This document shows positions 29,195 to 39,188 of a stretch of 39,188 nucleotides of DNA, piece after piece; within the stretch, counting starts at the first letter, position 1, and every line of letters starts with the position of its first letter. Where the stretch lies: contig JAAYJY010000176.1 in NCBI GenBank assembly GCA_012522705.1, positions 1 to 39,188 of the forward strand, read 5' to 3'. Both the position numbers and the translations under genes were made by a program. The notes below the pieces were generated by a model. It did not search any database and was not told the DNA's origin. It was given only the letters and a program-made list of their open reading frames with translations. This stretch comes from Syntrophomonadaceae bacterium. Its GTDB lineage: Bacteria > Bacillota > Syntrophomonadia > Syntrophomonadales > Syntrophomonadaceae.

Positions 29195-29255
29195 ATGATG
29201 CTAAGGGATAAAGCATCGCACAAGATAACGATTATTTAAGGAAGTGAAATTGTTA

Positions 29256-31697
29256 ATGAACCTTCAGCTCAAAAAAGTAATGCAGCCGGCAATAGCCTTC
29301 ATCGCTGCTCTGGCAATTGTGCTGTTGACCCCTTCGTTGGCAGTCGCTGGTGAGGCCAATCTGGTACTGCCGGAATTGAGCAGCGATCAGAATACCCTAC
29401 TCATTTTGGGTATGCTGGTCTGCGTATTGGGTATGTTCTTCGGTTACTATCAGTTTATTCGGGTTACCAAATTCAGGGCTCACCGAACAATGCTGGATGT
29501 AGCCCAGACTATTTACGAAACCTGTAAAACCTACCTGATTCAACAAGGAAAATTCATCGCTATCCTGTTCTTCTTCATCGGCTTGTGTATAGCCTTCTAT
29601 TTTGGCTACCTTTCCCAGATGCCGATAGGATCCGTATTATTCATCCTGATGTGGACTGTGATCGGGATACTCGGTTCCTACAGCGTAGCTTGGTACGGCA
29701 TCCGCATGAACACCCTGGCCAACAGCCGGGTAGCCTTCAGCTCCCTGGAGAGAAAACCCCTTAAGATGTTAAACATAGCCCTGGATGCCGGTATGAGTAT
29801 CGGAGTCTTGCTGGTATGCGTGGAGCTCATCATGATGCTGGTCATATTGGTATTTGTACCCCGGGAACTGGCCGGAGCCTCCTTTATCGGATTCGCCATC
29901 GGAGAATCATTGGGAGCCAGTGCCCTGCGTATAGCCGGGGGTATATTTACCAAGATAGCCGACATCGGCGCCGACCTGATGAAGATAGTATTCGGCATCA
30001 AAGAAGACGATCCGAGAAACCCGGGTGTTATTGCGGACTGCACCGGTGACAACGCCGGCGACAGTGTAGGTCCGACTGCGGATGGATTCGAGACCTATGG
30101 CGTGACCGGGGTGGCCATGGTCACCTTCATCGTCCTGGCAGTGGCTCCTGCCCTGCAGACCACCCTGCTCACCTGGATATTTGCCGTCCGGATTATGATG
30201 GTTATCAGCTCAGTCGCTTCCTTCTATATCAACCGCGCCGTGAGCCAGTCCCGATTTGGCAGCCTCACCGATTTTGATTTCGAAGCGCCCCTGACCAGCC
30301 TGGTATGGATCACCTCCATAGTGTCAATCGGCATCACCTACCTTCTCACCTACTATATGGTGGGACCGGGATCCAGTATCGTCACCGCCTTGACCCCCCA
30401 TTGGGCAACCCTGGCAACCATATTCAGTTTTGGTACCCTGGCCGCAGCCATGATCCCGGAAGCGGTTAAAATATTCACCAGCCCCAACTCCAAGCATGTT
30501 GCCGAGGTAGTACAAGCCTCCCGGGAAGGCGGACCCTCACTAAACATCCTGTCCGGACTGGTGGCTGGCAACTTCAGCGCCTTCTGGATCGGCATGGTAT
30601 TTGTCTTCATCATGTTTGGCGGATATTGGGCCAGTTTGCCCCTCACCGCAGATATCATGAGCTACCATTCGGTATTCGCCTTTGGCCTGATCGCTTTCGG
30701 CATGCTGGGCATGGGTCCGGTTACCATCGCTGTGGACAGCTATGGACCAGTCACCGATAATGCCCAGTCCATCTATGAATTGTCACTTATAGAAGAGGTC
30801 AAGGACGTCGATAAGGATATCGAGAAAGACTATGGATTCAAACCAGACTTTGAAAAGGGTAAACACTACCTGGAAGCCAACGATGGCGCCGGCAACACCT
30901 TCAAAGCCACCGCCAAGCCAGTCTTGATCGGCACCGCGGTAGTAGGAGCCACCGCCATGATCTTCTCCCTGATCCTAGTCATCGAGAATGTGTTGGAGGT
31001 AGACCCGGCCACCATCCTGGCCCTGCTCAATCCCTATACCATTCTGGGCCTGCTGTGCGGCGGAGCGGTAATCTACTGGTTTACCGGGGCATCTACCCAA
31101 GCCGTGGTCACTGGCGCCTACCGGGCAGTGGAATATATCAAAAGAAACATCAATTTGGACGAAGCCGCGGATGTCAAGGCCAATACCGAAAAGTCCAAAG
31201 AAGTGGTAAAGATATGTACCCAGTATGCCCAATCAGGTATGTTCAATATCTTTATCGCCCTGTTCTCCTTTGCCATGGCGTTTGCCTTTTTAGCTGCTCC
31301 CGCAGGAGGAAATTCCGAGCGAGTATCCTTCTTCGTGGCTTACCTGCTCTCCATAGCCATCTTTGGACTGTTCCAGGCCGTGTTCATGGCCAATGCCGGC
31401 GGCTGCTGGGATAATGCCAAGAAGGTAGTGGAAGTAGACTTACAGGAGAAAGGCACTCCGCTGCATGAAGCAACAGTGGTGGGAGACACTGTAGGCGATC
31501 CCTTCAAGGATACCTCCTCGGTTGCCTTGAACCCCATCATAAAGTTCACCACCTTGTTCGGGTTGCTGGCTATGGAGATAGCCATTGCGGAAGCATTCCG
31601 GGAGATAGCTCCCTTGGTTGGGATTGGATTCCTGTTGATAGCTTTGTTCTTTGTATGGCGTACCTTCTACGGAATGAGAATACCAGTTAAAGGATAG
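29256..31697 (+). CDS. hppA: Membrane-bound proton-translocating pyrophosphatase, K+-independent-type signature
   Basis: ORF 29244..31697, with ATG 29256 preferred. Motifs: ADCTGDNAGD, DSYGPVTDNA and VGDTVGDPFKDTS. GNTFKATAKP carries Lys at the A/K position that marks K+-independent enzymes. Confidence 0.92.
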   Translation: MNLQLKKVMQPAIAFIAALAIVLLTPSLAVAGEANLVLPELSSDQNTLLILGMLVCVLGMFFGYYQFIRVTKFRAHRTMLDVAQTIYETCKTYLIQQGKFIAILFFFIGLCIAFYFGYLSQMPIGSVLFILMWTVIGILGSYSVAWYGIRMNTLANSRVAFSSLERKPLKMLNIALDAGMSIGVLLVCVELIMMLVILVFVPRELAGASFIGFAIGESLGASALRIAGGIFTKIADIGADLMKIVFGIKEDDPRNPGVIADCTGDNAGDSVGPTADGFETYGVTGVAMVTFIVLAVAPALQTTLLTWIFAVRIMMVISSVASFYINRAVSQSRFGSLTDFDFEAPLTSLVWITSIVSIGITYLLTYYMVGPGSSIVTALTPHWATLATIFSFGTLAAAMIPEAVKIFTSPNSKHVAEVVQASREGGPSLNILSGLVAGNFSAFWIGMVFVFIMFGGYWASLPLTADIMSYHSVFAFGLIAFGMLGMGPVTIAVDSYGPVTDNAQSIYELSLIEEVKDVDKDIEKDYGFKPDFEKGKHYLEANDGAGNTFKATAKPVLIGTAVVGATAMIFSLILVIENVLEVDPATILALLNPYTILGLLCGGAVIYWFTGASTQAVVTGAYRAVEYIKRNINLDEAADVKANTEKSKEVVKICTQYAQSGMFNIFIALFSFAMAFAFLAAPAGGNSERVSFFVAYLLSIAIFGLFQAVFMANAGGCWDNAKKVVEVDLQEKGTPLHEATVVGDTVGDPFKDTSSVALNPIIKFTTLFGLLAMEIAIAEAFREIAPLVGIGFLLIALFFVWRTFYGMRIPVKG

Positions 31698-31776
31698 AAA
31701 ACAGACAGAGATCTCACGACAGTGAGGTTGTGAGGTCTCTAATTGTAAAAAGAAGGCTAAATGGCTACGTAAATAC

Positions 31777-31838
31777 GAAAGCCCGTTCAATCGGCGTACC
31801 TCATCATGTACGCCTCAATTACGGGCTTTCCTTTTGCC
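31777..31838. terminator. Nested hairpin between convergent hppA and the SIR2 gene
   Basis: GAAAGCCCGT (31777-31786) pairs with ACGGGCTTTC (31821-31830). An inner stem GGCGTAC/GTACGCC lies inside, and CTTTTGCC follows. A second hairpin, AGAGATCTCA/TGAGGTCTCT, sits at 31707-31740. Confidence 0.55.
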
Positions 31839-31929: not shown

Positions 31930-32742
31930 TCAAGGTTGCACCGCTTGCAGGAAACTGGCCAGTTTTTCACATCGGTCTAGTCCTTCATACCGTGATAGGT
32001 CGATGGTGTTTATGCCCATGCTTTCCAGAAGCACACTGGTCACATGACCTGGTTCGAAGAGCAGGATGTAGGAATCAGGAATATCCCTGGGGTCGACTTC
32101 GTACATCATACGCCGCAATTTGAACCAGAGGTAGCGGATGTTGAAATCAGAAAAACTATAACCGATAAATAAAAGACTTTTGCCCAGGCTGTCGGCCCGC
32201 AGTTTAATATCGATCGGGGTGACAAATTCCAGACGTTTGTAATAATCTGACTCGGTCAGAACCAGAGAATCATCCACTTCCAAAGAACCATGGAACTTCA
32301 CTATTTGAACCTCACTGCAGCCGGTGGTCTGAATAATGTCAGCAGTAGTCACTATTACTTTATAAGGCATAGCGAGTTCGGCAAAACTTCTCTCCAGCAA
32401 ACGGTCATAATTGGTGGTATAGATGATGGAGGCTCCCAACTGGGCCAAGAGCTGATGGGGTCGTGATAAAGCCACATCCTGGTCAGGCAGGCAAGAACGC
32501 AGTCTATTTAATACTGGTGTTGATGACCCGTCATGGATGATCTTTAGGTATTCAGTAAGATGCAACAGGTCTGTATCTGGAGGTATTGGTTCATCTGCAT
32601 CGAGGTTAAAGTGTTTTAGGAGTTTTTGAGTCAGCGCCAAGGTAGAAGGAAGTCCGGCGTTTTCAGAAAAACCGGCTCCAATAAAAGGGATAAGCTTATG
32701 ATTTTTGATCAATTGCCGCAATGCGATAGTATCGGACGTCAT
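31930..32742 (-). CDS. Stand-alone SIR2-family (SIR2_2-like) protein, putative NAD+-consuming effector
   Basis: ORF 31930..32805. The ATG at 32742 lies 6 nt after GGAGG and is preferred over the TTG at 32805, which falls inside a TTGACATTGACA promoter-like repeat. Motifs: LIPFIGAGFSENAGLPS, IIYTTNYDRLLE, VKFHGSL and LLFIGYSFSDFNIRY. Confidence 0.8.
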   Translation of the reverse strand: MTSDTIALRQLIKNHKLIPFIGAGFSENAGLPSTLALTQKLLKHFNLDADEPIPPDTDLLHLTEYLKIIHDGSSTPVLNRLRSCLPDQDVALSRPHQLLAQLGASIIYTTNYDRLLERSFAELAMPYKVIVTTADIIQTTGCSEVQIVKFHGSLEVDDSLVLTESDYYKRLEFVTPIDIKLRADSLGKSLLFIGYSFSDFNIRYLWFKLRRMMYEVDPRDIPDSYILLFEPGHVTSVLLESMGINTIDLSRYEGLDRCEKLASFLQAVQP

Positions 32743-32868
32743 GTCATACCTCCAGGGGCCATCTACACACTTCACGACATTGAGAATAAGAAATGTCAAT
32801 GTCAAGGGGACGGTTCTCTCGATACCTCCGTAGTTGCATGTATATTATGAGCACAGCAGTTTAGGCCC

Positions 32869-32913
32869 ATTTCTAGCGCAGCATTACCGTTCTTTCGAAA
32901 CGCAGCTAGAAAT
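32869..32913. other. Hairpin / inverted repeat ATTTCTAGC-27 nt-GCTAGAAAT
   Basis: 9-bp arms at 32869-32877 and 32905-32913. The loop contains a CGTT..AACG mini-stem and a TTCGAA palindrome. Confidence 0.4.
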
Positions 32914-32961
32914 CTAACCTGTCCGGAATTTAGACTTCACTGTGTTAAGAGTGACACTAAT

Positions 32962-32998
32962 GTCATCCTGAGCAAGCGAAGGATCTGCGAACGATGGG
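32962..32998 (+). repeat. Small hairpin repeat element, copy 2 (GTCATCCTGAGCAAGCGAAGGATCTGCGAACGATGGG)
   Basis: 5-bp stem ATCCT/AGGAT (32965-32969 with 32980-32984). It is related to the copy at 7540, with two compensatory base-pair swaps. Confidence 0.45.
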
Positions 32999-33329
32999 AA
33001 GCTATACAATCTAGGTGTGTGACCCCGCAAAACTTTGGATTTAGCTTGCACACAAAGGTTGCAATAAATACCCAGCCGATTGCAATGTAGCAGGGGTGGG
33101 GAGTTAGTAAATCGGACTGGTTCGTAAATTCCGGGGAAAGCGTAAACTCAAGAGTACTGTGGATATGATAGGGGACAATCAGGTAAATGTTCTTGATAAG
33201 GGTGAAGTGCTAAGCTATAGTGACAATATAATCACATCTGAAGTTTATTTGCATGGTATTGAAAACAAGGCCAGTTTGCGTTAGCATTTCCTAGCCGTTG
33301 CGTTTGAATATCGAATGGGGAGAATAAAT

Positions 33330-34079
33330 ATGGGATTGATCAATCCGCAAGCAGCGTCATTTTTAATAACTGGAGCTAAAGACACCGCTTGCATCTTTAT
33401 TCATGGATTTACCGCTTCACCTTCGTAGGTTTACCCAGTAGCCGGGATAGTCTTTGCAGAGACCGGAATAACGGTCAGCGGACCGTTGCTGCCCGGGCAT
33501 GGCTGTTCCCCGCAGGAGATGAATCAAACCAACTGGGAGGATTGGTATGGCCGAGTCGAACAGGAGATCAGGTATTTAAAGAAAGAACATCGTCGAGTTT
33601 ATATTACCGGCTTATCAATGGGAGCCCTGCTGGGTTTGCATGCCGCCAGTGAAACTAAAGATATCGACGGGCTCATCGTCATCAATACCCCTATCTACAC
33701 CACCTCCCCGCGTCTGATGAGCTTGGCGCCCCTGCTGCGCTATGTTAGGCCCTATTATCCTAAAAAAAGACAAGGTGATCTGATGGAACTGTCCCGACAG
33801 GGGCGGTTTGCTTACGATGTGATGCCGCTGAAAGCACTGCAAAGCATGCATGTCTTGCGGGATAAGGTGATCAAGGAACTGCCCGGTCTGGACTTACCGA
33901 TTTTACTAATGCAGTCACGTTGGGATGAGACCGTCGACCCCCGCAGCGCCCGCTTTATCAAGGAGAAAGCCCAGCGGGCGCCAGTTAGGTTGGTGGCACT
34001 TGAAAACTCCGGTCATTGCGCCACTATGGGGCCGGATACCGGTGTGATTGCCGATCAGATTATCGAATTTTTGAAATGA
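33330..34079 (+). CDS. est: Alpha/beta-hydrolase carboxylesterase (Est/YvaK-like), interrupted by in-frame TAG at 33426-33428
   Basis: The ATG at 33330 lies 7 nt after GGGGAG. The N-terminal 32 codons (CIFIHGFTASPS) are in frame with ORF 33486..34079. The nucleophile elbow is GLSMGA, and ENSGHCAT lies near the C-terminus. The position upstream of rnr matches Bacillus yvaK. Confidence 0.75.
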
Positions 34080-34781: not shown

Positions 34782-36890
34782 TTGCTTACCCGCGAGGATA
34801 TCCTCAACCATATGCAACAGGAAAGCTACCGGCCTTTGTCGTATCAGGAGCTGGCCAACACTTTTCATATCGAAGATATAGATCAGGTTAAGTTTGCCAA
34901 GATAATCGGCCGCCTGCAAAAAGACGGCGAAATCCTTAAGACCCGTAAGGATAAATACGGTTTACCGGAGAAGATGAACACCTACCGCGGCATGATAAAA
35001 CTCAGCCAGCGCGGCTACGGAATCTTCACCCCGGAGGATGCCGACCTGGGCGAGGTCTTTATTTATGGCCGTAATTTGAATGGAGCCATGCATGAAGACC
35101 GGGTTCTGGTCCGGATCAACCAGCGAGGCGGTGGTGACCAGCGCCCTGAAGGCGAAGTTATCCTGGCCGTAACCAGGGCTCACAAGGCACTGGTGGGCAC
35201 CTTTAGGAAATAGCGCCAGGCAGCCCAGGTTACCCAGGACGATTCCCGTCAAATCTATCCGATTTATGTAAAGGTCAATGACAAGAGCAAGGTGCGCAAT
35301 GGGGACAAGGTCCTGGTCAGAATCAGCACCTGGCCGGACAAGGACCGTTACCCGGATGGAGAGATCGTGGAGGTTTTCGGCAGGAAGGGGCAGCCGGGGG
35401 TGGACCTGCAGATCGTGATCAAAAAACATGCCCTGCGGGACCGTTTTCCAAACTCGGTGCTGGAAGAAGCCCGACGAGTGGCGCACCGGGGAGCAGAGAC
35501 CGATTTGGCTGGCAGGCGTGATCTGCGCGAGTTGCGGATGGTGACCATCGACGGGGAAGACGCCAAGGACCTGGATGATGCGGTTTCGATAGAGAGGAAA
35601 AGGGGCGGCTACCAGTTGGGGGTGCATATTGCCGATGTATCCCATTATGTGAAAGAAGACAGCAAGCTTGATAAAGAAGCCTGCGAGCGCGGCACCAGCG
35701 TATATCTGATTGACAAGGTTCTGCCCATGCTGCCAGCGGAACTGTCCAATGGTATCTGCAGCTTGAACGCAGGGGAGGATCGCTTGGCCATAAGTTGTAT
35801 CATGGACATCGATGGGTCCGGTAAGGTGCGCAAATATGAGATTGTCCCGTCGCTTATACATATCGATCAACGCATGACCTACACCACCGTCAACCTCATT
35901 CTGGAACAGAACGATGCGTGTGCCATCGCTGCTTACCAGCCCTTGATAGATGATTTCCGATTGATGAAGGAATTGGCCGACATACTCCGCAGCGAGAGGA
36001 TGAACCGGGGAGCTTTGGATTTCGACTTCCCCGAGCCTAAAGTAATAGTAAACGAGCAGGGATTTCCTTTAGAAATTAAAGTGCGGGAGAGCGGCGCGGG
36101 CGAAATGCTCATTGAAGATTTCATGATCAAAGCCAACGAAGTAGTAGCCGAACACCTGATTAAAAAGGAAGCTCCGGCACTTTACCGGGTACATGAAAAA
36201 CCGCAAGGCGACTCATTGCTGCGGCTGAACAATGTGCTGGGCGTATTCGGGCAGAAACTCCTTGAAAATCGGATCAATCCCAAGGAGTTCCAGAGGATCC
36301 TTAATGAGATCAAAGGCAGCCCCGGAGAAAAGACCATATCCCTGATGCTGCTGCGGTCGATGAAACATGCCCGCTACGCACCCCAGCCGTTAGGGCATTT
36401 TGGCCTGGCTTCCCAATATTATTGCCACTTCACCAGTCCCATTCGCCGATACCCGGACCTAGTCGTGCACCGGGCTCTGAAATTGCTGCTGGCCGGGGGA
36501 ATTAAGGGCTCGCGAAAAGTCCAGTTGGAAAAGAAAATGGGCTACTACAGCGAACGCTCCACTATCCAGGAGATCAAGGCCGAGGAAGCAGAGCGTGACT
36601 TGGTAGCCATCAAAAAATGCCAGTATATGCAGCAGTTTATTGGCGAGGAGTTCGATGCCACCATATCATCGGTGCTGTCCTTCGGGTTCTTTGTGGAACT
36701 GCCTAATACTGTTGAGGGTCTGGTTCACATATCCAGCATCCATGATGATTATTATCAGTTCAATGACCGCAACTTTACCTTGACCGGCAACTACAGCGGC
36801 AAGAAGTATGCTATTGGGGACCCGGTCCGGGTCCTGCTGGTCAAAGTAGACATAGATGACGTAAAGATCGATTTCGAACTGGTCTGCTAG
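34782..36890 (+). CDS. rnr: Ribonuclease R, interrupted by in-frame TAG at 35211-35213
   Basis: ORFs 34782..35213 and 35292..36890 are in the same frame. The protein has an N-terminal HTH/CSD region, an RNB domain (TIDGEDAKDLDDAVS, HFGLASQYYCHFTSPIRRYPDLVVHR) and a C-terminal S1 domain. Confidence 0.9.
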
Positions 36891-38006: not shown

Positions 38007-38020
38007 TTATATTTTAGAAT

Positions 38021-38278
38021 TCACACCCCTGTAATTATCGTTTTTTTGCGGTGTTGCATGGGTTTTTGCTTGCCTTTGGCAAAATGTTGTTCCTTACAAG
38101 GTTCACCCACTTCGTTGAACAGTGGGCCCTGCTCAATCTTCGCCTTGTACTCGATCATTTTCCGTTCGACCTGGGCGTCGCTGCGACCTCGAAAAGGTAC
38201 GCGCTTTCCGTTGATGACCCGAATCGCTTCATGGAGACCGTCTGGCCTGACATAGTATTTGGGTTTTTTCTTGGCCAT
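38021..38278 (-). pseudogene. Truncated tyrosine-integrase gene (only the N-terminal arm-binding part, about 60 aa, remains)
   Basis: MAKKKPKYYVRPDGLHEAIRVINGKRVPFRGRSDAQVERKMIEYKAKIEQGPLFNEVGE resembles integrase N-termini of Firmicute phages and ICEs. The frame then runs into unrelated sequence abutting the tmRNA 3' end. No catalytic domain is present. Confidence 0.45.
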
Positions 38279-38280
38279 TA

Positions 38281-39117
38281 TTATTCACCTCTTTTCGTTA
38301 TTCGTTTAAAAGCCTTCTGATTCTTTTTCTCTAGTTTTTTAATACTGTCTTCTACCGGGAGATTCTCAGGCATGGTCCCACCCAACTCTTCAATAGTATC
38401 CCTGACTTTTCTTCCTACCTTGTAATGAGTTCTGTTAGCATTTTCTTTGCCTTGAATATTATCACGGCGAAGCTTCTCTTCTGTTTGTGTTGCGCGGAAA
38501 AGGTTGGCTGCGAGTTCTGTACTACCCATATGATCAAGAATATTTTGTGACTTTTTTAACTGTTTACGGCGATGAATATCTTTGGCCTCCAGTCCTCCGT
38601 AAAGGCCTTTATAGCCGTGATTCTGAAATATGGCAAAGTCCAATCCGGTATCTACCCCTGAATCTTTGGCTGCACTAGCAAGATATGTATTATGCTTCTT
38701 GAGTTCTTGCCTGAGCATTAACCGTTTATCATCTTCAGATGCCTGTTCGAATAACTCTTGTTTTCGCGTTTGGACAGCGAAATACGTTTGACCCATGGCC
38801 ACAATTTCTTTGGACGGATCAGCATTTTGTACAATTAAATAACATGCATAACGAGATAAATGATAATTTTCTATTGTTCTCTTTGCTTTGCTTCCGATAT
38901 CGACCAATTCGTTTATTTGCACGAAATGGTTTTCTATAATCTGCTGGCTGTTTTCGCACGCTTTCATAGCTTTTTTGATAACAGGTAAAAAATTTCTATA
39001 TTCAGCATATTCGAGGATTATCATTAAATCTCTAGCCGACCAGTATTCCATGTTTTGTTTAGTCACTTTTTTTATTTGTTCAAAGGGTGATTGGATCCCA
39101 ACTGGTTTGTCGGTCAT
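38281..39117 (-). CDS. dinD: DNA-damage-inducible protein D family protein
   Basis: 278 aa. It closely resembles my recollection of E. coli DinD (WSAR.L...YACYLIVQN.DP...GQTYFAVQTR.QEL, FAIFQNHGYKGLYGGL, LDHMGSTELAANLFRATQTEEKL, GRKVRDTIEELGGTMPE). The gene is strongly AT-rich. Confidence 0.8.
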   Translation of the reverse strand: MTDKPVGIQSPFEQIKKVTKQNMEYWSARDLMIILEYAEYRNFLPVIKKAMKACENSQQIIENHFVQINELVDIGSKAKRTIENYHLSRYACYLIVQNADPSKEIVAMGQTYFAVQTRKQELFEQASEDDKRLMLRQELKKHNTYLASAAKDSGVDTGLDFAIFQNHGYKGLYGGLEAKDIHRRKQLKKSQNILDHMGSTELAANLFRATQTEEKLRRDNIQGKENANRTHYKVGRKVRDTIEELGGTMPENLPVEDSIKKLEKKNQKAFKRITKRGE

Positions 39118-39188
39118 TATGAAGCCCCTTTCAAATTAAGTGAAAACCACAACTTTTGCTCAACCTCACCATCGGATCGGCCCCGGAA

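Follow-up and report, generated by a model that had tools for sequence, protein, structure and literature searches.

What does a solitary SIR2 protein of immune type do among the housekeeping genes of a syntrophic lineage? The question is raised by a stretch of 39,188 nucleotides from a Syntrophomonadaceae bacterium (contig JAAYJY010000176.1 of assembly GCA_012522705.1; the window), in which a gene for a SIR2 protein lies on its own strand between hppA and est. A first-pass annotation had proposed this gene as a candidate minimal defence gene that acts by depletion of nicotinamide adenine dinucleotide (NAD). Our analysis identifies its product as a close relative of KomC, the NAD-hydrolysing enzyme (NADase) of the Kongming defence system, which occupies its chromosomal slot without the Kongming partners, keeps its catalytic residues and has lost many of those through which KomC of E. 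coli is activated.

Results

The open reading frame (ORF) is intact, comprises 270 codons and starts with ATG; a longer version initiated at a TTG at position 32805 was rejected, as the ATG is where 30 homologues begin in the alignment. Against Pfam the protein matches SIR2_2 (PF13289) over the full 141-position profile (92.3 bits against a cut-off of 24.5, E 3.8e-26), which was the only model returned at E <= 1; the canonical sirtuin model PF02146 (CobB/Sir2) was unmatched. All motifs quoted in the first-pass annotation are present, namely IPFIGAGFS with the NAD-loop glycines G22/G24, YTTNYDRLLE with the conserved Asn (N111), VKFHGS with the catalytic His (H151), and LLFIGYSFSDFNIRY with D199. 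Its description of the product as a stand-alone SIR2_2 protein of about 270 amino acids holds as well, no sensor domain fused to the SIR2 domain having been found in the 270-residue protein. Of the profile searches that it had suggested, the one with PF13289 thus gave a full match and the one with PADLOC partial matches confined to the SIR2 domain.

Among solved structures the best match by sequence is KomC (8zsf_D, E 3e-43, residues 13-249 of the query against 9-245 of 264), with 36-40% identity over nearly the full length; the E values for ThsA and DSR2 are about 1e-18 and 1e-6, respectively. The predicted fold points the same way. When the AlphaFold2 model of the protein (predicted local distance difference test, pLDDT, 89.6) was used as a Foldseek query, cryo-electron microscopy structures of KomC took ranks 1, 2 and 4 with template modelling (TM) scores of 0.83-0.86, followed by the KomBC complex 9v0g, ThsA and DSR2. 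The KomC structures are those of the protein from E. coli NCTC13216 (PDB 8ZSF, 8ZSG-8ZSI and 9XVC). By sequence and predicted fold the window protein is thus a KomC-type SIR2, and it resembles KomC also in size (270 versus 264 amino acids), in its single-domain architecture and in the catalytic N/H/D residues together with R177, R198 and E159. The first-pass placement among defence-type SIR2_2 proteins was correct as far as it went; the closest family, KomC of Kongming, had not been named. A second KomBC complex (PDB 9V0G and 9V12, with a SIR2 chain of 278 amino acids) is matched at E 2.4e-31, with a TM score of 0.82 for the predicted fold and 28% identity; it was solved as a complex with KomB, and a paper describing it was not found in the literature searched.

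Other names that automated annotation attaches to the protein do not fit. ThsA, Dsr2, LmuA, PDC-S25 and Avs5, returned by PADLOC and NCBIfam, were rejected as names because the matches are partial and cover the SIR2 domain only. ThsA of type I Thoeris (PDB 6LHX, 8BTO and 7UXT) does possess a homologous SIR2 domain (PADLOC ThsA1, E 2e-31; TM 0.80 for the modelled fold, normalised to the query) and is also activated through helical assembly. It has, however, a C-terminal SLOG/STALD domain that senses glycocyclic ADP-ribose (gcADPR) and a TIR partner, ThsB, whereas the window protein covers positions 17-214 of the 478 in the ThsA profile and ends at residue 270 without SLOG/STALD; no ThsB (TIR) gene is found near the SIR2 gene, the neighbours being hppA and est. 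The restriction of the best PADLOC matches to the SIR2 half of ThsA agrees with a published remark on the annotation of Kongming as Thoeris, and no Kongming model was among the matches returned from PADLOC-DB 2.0.0 (2023). The SIR2 domain of DSR1/DSR2 is homologous too (NCBIfam Dsr2, E 5e-16 over the N-terminal 150 residues, 57.9 bits against a cut-off of 1400; TM about 0.8 on the SIR2 part of the model), but DSR proteins are about 1000-1200 amino acids long and contain large sensor domains which bind phage tail-tube protein, a domain that the 270-residue window protein does not have.

In Kongming (KomABC) the adenosine deaminase KomA and a phage nucleotide kinase make deoxyinosine triphosphate (dITP), the dead HAM1 protein KomB senses it and KomC is the NADase (Zeng et al., bioRxiv 10.1101/2024.12.20.629578 and Science 2025; Li et al., Nat Commun 2026, PMC13454610). 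Tight linkage, co-evolution and sometimes even fusion have been reported for KomB and KomC, and every defensive HAM1 has been found linked to a KomC, in a survey that started from HAM1 and not from SIR2. We started from SIR2. A search of public data yielded more than 1,298 homologous proteins, nearly all of 265-290 amino acids and from many phyla. A scan of species-representative genomes gave at least 495 loci, of which the best 80 were taken; ORFs were extracted, neighbours were clustered, and partner genes were counted over 81 loci. At 26 of these a KomB gene adjoins the SIR2 gene, on the same strand and directly up- or downstream, usually with an overlap of 1-8 bp. The partner, of about 185-200 amino acids, matches Ham1p_like (PF01725, E 1e-32 to 1e-36) and carries VEHGG or VEHTG in place of the catalytic Asp of housekeeping HAM1, and some of the KomBC loci also contain a gene for an adenosine deaminase (PF00962) or a uracil-DNA glycosylase, in agreement with published Kongming. 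At the other 55 loci KomB is absent within 5 kb, a fraction which, coming from a similarity-ranked sample, is not unbiased. The window gene is of the latter kind, having neither KomB (HAM1) nor KomA (adenosine deaminase) beside it. HAM1 is absent among the Pfam-annotated neighbours in the identical contig and in the syntenic loci of other species, and no KomA-type domain (PF00962) or other nucleotide-modifying gene was found among the genes of the window. A recurrent partner of the homologues that is missing here, which the first-pass annotation had named as a sign of a remnant, does therefore exist. A solitary or orphan KomC was not found described in the two Kongming papers or in the wider literature searched.

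The KomB-less relatives show features of their own. Clades from Mesorhizobium, from Variovorax/Burkholderiales and from Bacteroidia are genus-specific and syntenic; a Bacillaceae clade is KomB-less too, with no shared neighbours evident. In the Bacteroidia clade (L019, L022, L028, L043, L048, L073 and L078) the SIR2 gene follows a same-strand gene for an APH/fructosamine-kinase-like protein; the wider neighbourhood is conserved in L022, L028 and L073, with smpB upstream (in L048 smpB lies two genes upstream), and in L028 and L073 an inosine-uridine nucleoside hydrolase gene stands between smpB and the kinase gene. Some KomC-like cores elsewhere bear C-terminal extensions of about 190-280 amino acids without Pfam match (L016, 103-1746; L095, 5310-6698, protein P0038; L025, L026, L033 and L052). 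These extensions, which are absent from the window protein, form two unrelated families, one in Firmicutes (Paenibacillus L016, P0038) and one in Actinobacteria, and may be alternative sensor modules. The gene for P0038 adjoins GmrSD_N and HEPN genes.

But what has become of the surfaces through which KomC is switched on? We compared 113 aligned proteins, of which 27 are KomB-linked (including E. coli KomC), 36 belong to the Syntrophomonas clade of the window protein and 50 are other KomB-less proteins, using E. coli KomC numbering and the residue roles given by Li et al. Invariant across the three groups are N107, H146 and D194 and also E159, R177 and R198, so that the catalytic residues have stayed constant despite up to 43% protein divergence. 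In E. coli KomC the H146A exchange abolishes Kongming defence and NAD depletion (Zeng et al.), and D194A abolishes NADase activity, this Asp being characteristic of SIR2s that act as immune NADases, not of deacetylases (Li et al.). The contact residues have fared differently (Table 1). Of the KomB-contact set (E246 and D248, which are essential, and D44/D46), the window protein has Ser (S250) at E246 and Leu at D248 and has lost D46, and the D248 position is not conserved in the clade. At the filament and activation positions R72, D76, R77, loop1 (D148-D152) and E169 it has L, R, S, S...D and V, respectively, with R177 kept. A screen for clade signatures returned 11 positions, four of which are reported interface residues and several others immediate neighbours of these; at R72, D148, E169 and Q231 there are just 0-2 exceptions to the separation of the clade from the other 77 proteins. 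In the published activation model E169 forms an active-state salt bridge with R177, and E169K impairs defence; Q231 makes a KomC-KomC dimer contact with E56; and a loop1 replacement mutant loses filaments and activity, D148 never having been mutated singly (Li et al.). The nearest relatives outside the hppA-est slot (46-48% identity) are P0033 and P0034, which are bare, and L016 and P0038, which carry a C-terminal extension. E169 is kept in L016, P0033 and P0034, and R72 in L016 and P0033, P0034 having Lys. As these three out-of-slot relatives keep E169 and mostly R72, the remodelling coincides with fixation of the gene between hppA and est. The other KomB-less clades mostly retain R72, D76, R77 and E169.

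Table 1. Features of the SIR2 gene and its surroundings (window positions; KomC residues in E. coli numbering)
Feature	Position	Strand	Basis or remark
CDS (coding sequence), 270-amino-acid KomC-type SIR2 (SIR2_2) protein	31930..32742	-	ORF, stop codon included; PF13289 and KomC matches
Ribosome-binding site GGAGG	32749..32753	-	6 nt 5' of the ATG at 32742; read from sequence
Codon Asn111 (YTTNYD), KomC N107, conserved catalytic Asn	32410..32412	-	Invariant in 113 aligned family members
Codon His151 (KFHG), KomC H146, catalytic His	32290..32292	-	KomC alignment; invariant in all groups
Codon Asp199 (SFSDFN), KomC D194, Asp typical of immune-type SIR2	32146..32148	-	Invariant
Codon Leu78, KomC R72 (filament contact)	32509..32511	-	L in 33/36 of the clade, R in 68/77 of the rest
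Codon Ser153, KomC D148 (loop1 filament contact)	32284..32286	-	S in 36/36 of the clade, D in 60/77 of the rest
Codon Val174, KomC E169	32221..32223	-	V in 35/36 of the clade, E in 68/77 of the rest; no overlap
Codon Thr235, KomC Q231	32038..32040	-	T in 32/36 of the clade, Q in 58/77 of the rest; no overlap
KomC D76 (filament contact)			R/H/Q in the Syntrophomonas clade
KomC R77 (filament contact, essential)			Variable in the Syntrophomonas clade
KomC E246 (KomB contact, essential)			S/A/T in 36/36 of the clade; acidic in 23/27 KomB-linked proteins
KomC D46 (KomB contact)			Deleted in 29/36 of the clade
hppA (membrane pyrophosphatase), convergent left neighbour bounding the slot	29244..31697	+	PF03030 in identical contig; same neighbour in all syntenic loci
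est (alpha/beta hydrolase), divergent right neighbour bounding the slot	33330..34079	+	Stop at 33426-33428 in this window
Divergent SIR2-est spacer, 587 bp	32743..33329	.	Without conserved ORF or known RNA
Inverted repeat, 28-nt arms, between the convergent hppA and SIR2 3' ends	31772..31835	.	71% complementary, 8-nt loop

The position of the gene is conserved as well. A 66.7-kb ENA contig and many Logan contigs encode the identical protein, and its surroundings are the same in all of them. The order hppA, SIR2 on the opposite strand, est, HD-domain gene, rnr, smpB is kept in lineages whose SIR2 proteins are 74, 60, 57 and 57% identical to the window copy, as well as in L116, and a partial contig with 91% SIR2 identity (L014) has est, rnr and smpB beside the SIR2 gene. 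Altogether at least six Syntrophomonas/Syntrophomonadaceae lineages besides that of the window have the hppA-est slot filled, with SIR2 identities as low as 57%. All of the syntenic lineages are uncultured Syntrophomonas or Syntrophomonadaceae known from metagenome-assembled genomes; carriers of the syntenic gene include GCA_964494735.1, GCA_034927445.1, GCA_032774505.1, the JAQVWS01 assembly and the ENA bin ERZ4240871. For ten more SIR2 homologues the longest contig is equal in length to that of a rank-matched est homologue, which suggests, as circumstantial evidence, the same linkage. Identity to the window SIR2 (91/74/57/60/57%) tracks that of est (91/76/58/65/64%) and of tpi (69/57/58/58% in the last four of these loci); hppA, eno and smpB are more conserved than SIR2 across the syntenic loci. 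The SIR2 topology, {L001,L013} | L015 | {L009,L017}, agrees with that of the concatenated neighbour proteins. Compared with L014, the closest relative for which DNA is available, the ratio of nonsynonymous to synonymous substitution rates (dN/dS) is 0.086 for SIR2, 0.083 for est and 0.089 for rnr. Two population variants within the SIR2 gene (32068 and 32365), worked out by hand, fall at third codon positions, and the ORF is unbroken in every lineage examined. Synteny, tracking divergence, neighbour-like GC content at third codon positions (GC3) and low dN/dS together indicate that the gene is neither a recent island nor a decaying relic. The recent insertion implied by the first-pass annotation is therefore not upheld, the slot being shared across species with divergence that matches the neighbours; what it had listed as a contrary outcome, a conserved non-defence context, is indeed seen for the gene's own clade, which sits in a housekeeping neighbourhood in several species. 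Unlike Kongming, which is mobile, this KomC relative is chromosomally fixed and vertically inherited, with its contact residues replaced clade-wide.

The slot is not filled everywhere. In L096, of the same clade (est 64% identical; 673-kb contig), hppA and est are 188 bp apart without SIR2, which reflects either loss of the gene or divergence of this lineage before the insertion took place, as the placement of L096 relative to the SIR2-bearing lineages is ambiguous in the trees. In the more distant Syntrophomonadaceae L097 and L098 a different, short hppA directly adjoins est and the slot is empty, and L099 has the classical order secG-est-rnr. The first-pass annotation had noted that the gene interrupts the secG-est-rnr block, and by comparison with L099 this is so, hppA, SIR2 and the HD-domain gene being additional here. 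The window hppA is of a long type (813 amino acids) with 28-30% identity to the 660-amino-acid hppA at the same position in L097 (2668-4665) and L098 (2894-4873); the long type is present in all SIR2-bearing lineages examined and also in the SIR2-less L096. One further homologue, P0006 (68% identity overall; alignment columns 201-305), has the C-terminal approximately 100 residues identical to the window protein and a much more divergent N-terminal part, which suggests a chimeric assembly or a recombinant allele. A viral origin of the gene was rejected: IMG/VR holds seven contigs with relatives, at 37-38% identity, and none is close to the Syntrophomonas clade.

As the first-pass annotation had seen, SIR2 is the sole minus-strand gene of the chromosomal part of the window; the next one is a Bro-N ORF past ssrA, and all other long minus-strand ORFs overlap plus-strand genes with strong Pfam matches and are themselves without match. 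The gene is convergent with hppA, divergent from est and monocistronic and, as had also been stated, has no co-oriented neighbour, lying on the strand opposite to every flanking gene. No defence genes were found among its annotated neighbours in the window, and no recombinase, meaningful flanking repeat or transfer RNA gene at the hppA-est slot. Its GC content (45.6%) and GC3 (47.6%) are the lowest among the chromosomal genes (range of genes 49-60%; window 52.2%). The contrast to hppA that had been estimated (about 45-50% against about 55-57%) is thus real but smaller, hppA having 52.0% over the whole gene and 54-56% in its middle. Low GC3 of SIR2 is clear in the window's own lineage only; in L015 it is slightly low, and in L013, L017, L116 and L009 it matches the neighbours.

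Could the partner or a controlling element be hidden in the spacers? The first-pass annotation had considered the 587-bp upstream spacer for this, and nothing recognisable emerged from it. An Rfam search of the spacers gave no match, the best being Chlorobi-1 at E 0.7, below threshold; the 587-bp spacer and the 232-bp gap between SIR2 and hppA contain only short, non-conserved ORFs; and translated comparison with the neighbour proteins of the 81 loci, near-identical strains aside, revealed no relic of KomB, KomA or a C-terminal domain. In orthologues the SIR2-est spacer measures 155-330 bp, and its DNA is unconserved save for a 38-nt block, shared with L013, that overlaps a promoter-like site for est (33193-33221, plus strand). 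The inverted repeat between the 3' ends of hppA and SIR2 may act as a terminator on both strands, judged by its sequence; a simple terminator scan did not call it. Another inverted repeat, of 18 nt (31952-31969 and 33260-33277, 83% complementary), brackets SIR2 and most of the spacer and was rejected as the boundary of a mobile element; since one arm lies inside the coding sequence and there is no recombinase, it is treated as chance. Two runs labelled 'RNA-Seq' that hold the locus gave flat, DNA-like coverage. The sole metatranscriptome contig near SIR2 (32844-33026, 183 nt, from run X3 at depth 2.3) falls within the spacer between SIR2 and est and in neither coding sequence; it might represent a 5' leader or a small RNA not yet annotated, or else carried-over DNA.

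For the window as a whole, the gene order by Pfam begins with genes for a PDZ protein and a P-loop protein, uvrB, uvrA, an oxidoreductase cluster (Fe-S, flavin and molybdopterin) and uvrC, continues with a small membrane protein gene, DUF362, pgi, rapZ, whiA, rpoN, cggR, gap, pgk, tpi, pgm, eno, secG, hppA, SIR2 on the opposite strand, est and the HD-domain gene, and ends with rnr, smpB, ssrA for transfer-messenger RNA and the low-GC Bro-N ORF on the minus strand. Set against an ENA contig of 99.78% identity (L001), the window has three disruptions in housekeeping genes, the SIR2 coding sequence being identical: an in-frame stop at codon 33 of est (33426 T versus G in L001, two public runs also reading G), because of which the est ORF as listed looks too short; an in-frame stop at codon 144 of rnr (35211-35213, TAG versus TAC); and a 1-bp deletion at about 24599 that splits pgk. 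All three are probably rare variants or else errors of the consensus or assembly. Exactly from the 3' end of ssrA onwards the strains are no longer similar (window 38007-39188; L001 1-4600; L009 1-3200; L011 1-2351; L116 8820-9312). Past this point the window carries the Bro-N ORF (38281-39117, 38% GC), and other strains and species carry serine recombinases, DUF927, S24 peptidase or SHOCT genes; with different islands in different strains, ssrA is an integration hotspot.

Discussion

Why would a SIR2 gene of this family persist without its partner? On balance we favour the view that it encodes an orphan KomC-type SIR2 which is partner-independent and chromosomally fixed, still hydrolyses NAD+ and is gated by another trigger. 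A KomC-like gene without KomB and KomA would have become fixed between hppA and est in the ancestor of a Syntrophomonas subclade and would have been inherited vertically ever since, under purifying selection. Judged by its residues, the protein would cleave NAD+ to ADP-ribose and nicotinamide; we infer that this activity has been retained because the invariant residues under selection are the catalytic ones, including the immune-type Asp. Switching-on by KomB and dITP and by filament rearrangement of the Kongming type would no longer operate. The enzyme might be gated by a homo-oligomer interface that has been remodelled and become more hydrophobic, by low expression or by sensing a cue directly, and the polar-to-hydrophobic changes (R to L, E to V) would suggest that such an interface has been rebuilt. 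As to its role, NAD depletion of the abortive-infection type is slightly favoured over a domesticated physiological function: the family, the kept D199 and dispensability in one lineage speak for defence, and the long vertical history in a housekeeping neighbourhood and the housekeeping-level constraint speak for domestication.

Several points weigh against this view. In vitro, E. coli KomC shows no NADase activity by itself and requires KomB (Zeng et al.), so that an orphan KomC might be inert. The replaced E169 and loop1 are needed for the activity of E. coli KomC, and R72 is needed in part (Li et al.). Six-frame translation of the 39-kb window contains no HAM1-like segment (best E 0.7), the rest of the genome not having been searched. 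Transcripts of the SIR2 coding sequence are absent among 17 small contigs over 8.9 kb from five true metatranscriptomes of very low depth; the SIR2 transcript is much less abundant than hppA mRNA, and the depth supports no more than this. The SIR2 tree was built by neighbour-joining only. Finally, defence genes are not usually inherited vertically over long periods among housekeeping genes, which weakens the defence reading in particular.

How do other explanations fare? The gene might be half of a split two-component system whose sensor, KomB-like or of another kind, has its gene elsewhere in the genome. The dependence of E. coli KomC on KomB would be accounted for in this way, inspection covered 39 kb of the genome and 66.7 kb in the best contig, and many KomB-less relatives keep filament and KomB-contact residues, so that partners in trans are conceivable within the family. 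In the Syntrophomonas clade, however, the KomB-contact positions E246, D46 and D248 are lost or unconserved, which makes a KomB elsewhere in the genome unlikely; KomB and KomC are otherwise so tightly linked as to be fused at times, and no partner in cis is conserved at any syntenic locus. We therefore regard a split system as unlikely. A modest chance of being right can be given to the idea that this syntrophic lineage has domesticated the enzyme for a task outside defence, such as controlled turnover of NAD+ or the ADP-ribosylation or deacylation of a cellular target. Its stable position, vertical inheritance and dN/dS at the level of housekeeping genes would be expected of such an enzyme, there are no defence genes nearby, and KomB-less relatives in Mesorhizobium, Burkholderiales and Bacteroidia also have neighbourhoods conserved at genus level. 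Yet D199, which is typical of immune NADases and not of deacetylases, is kept, the canonical sirtuin model is unmatched, L096 does without the gene, which makes it dispensable, and a functional link to the neighbouring genes was not found.

The leading idea of the first-pass annotation, a mobile one-gene defence islet recently transferred horizontally into the hppA/est junction, draws on the opposite strand, the lowest GC and GC3 of the window's chromosomal genes, the defence-type family, the ssrA hotspot 5 kb away with islands that differ by strain, and the empty slot in one lineage of the same clade. It is largely refuted by synteny and in our opinion very unlikely: the slot is filled across lineages that have diverged to 57% SIR2 identity, the gene has diverged in step with its neighbours and gives a tree of matching topology, most orthologous loci show no difference in GC3 between SIR2 and its neighbours, the slot has no recombinase, meaningful flanking repeat or tRNA gene, and the relatives on viral contigs are remote. 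Nor can the gene readily be a non-functional relic of a decayed Kongming operon. Such a relic would account for the missing partner genes and the lack of transcript contigs on the coding sequence, but it is contradicted by the ORF, intact in every lineage, by the low dN/dS and by catalytic residues invariant over the whole divergence of the clade, whose specific substitutions are themselves conserved; we consider it barely tenable. The 'orphaned remnant' of the first-pass annotation may thus stand as a statement on origin, not as one on decay.

Tentatively, the favoured view of a partner-independent enzyme can be extended: solitary KomC-type SIR2s could form an unrecognised class of self-contained enzymes that are active without a nucleotide-sensing partner. 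This class would include the Syntrophomonas clade and possibly the KomB-less clades of Mesorhizobium, Burkholderiales, Bacteroidia and Bacillaceae; the Syntrophomonas interfaces would have been rebuilt as a new hydrophobic oligomer switch; and the enzymes would provide one-gene immunity by NAD depletion or, domesticated, NAD control in syntrophic metabolism. Taken with all its parts, we think this proposal has a real but minor chance of being correct.

Conclusions

At the protein level the SIR2 of the window belongs to the KomC family; at the level of a system, the defining features of Kongming, Thoeris and DSR are missing. Seen from the side of KomC, the family looks different from the Kongming described from the side of HAM1, with KomB missing from the 5 kb around 55 of the 81 KomC-like genes sampled. 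Clearest among these cases is the Syntrophomonas clade, in that the sensor has been lost, the gene occupies a housekeeping slot, selection has been kept and the residues for KomB contact and filament activation have been rewritten. The substitutions R72L, D148S, E169V, Q231T and E246S form a natural set that bears on the published activation model. If the protein is inert without KomB, automated defence annotation with its ThsA- or Thoeris-like labels over-calls such genes; if it is active, it shows a signal-dependent immune effector becoming autonomous or domesticated. The main value of the locus is thus that of a natural experiment on the autonomy or domestication of an effector, and of a caution for automated defence annotation.

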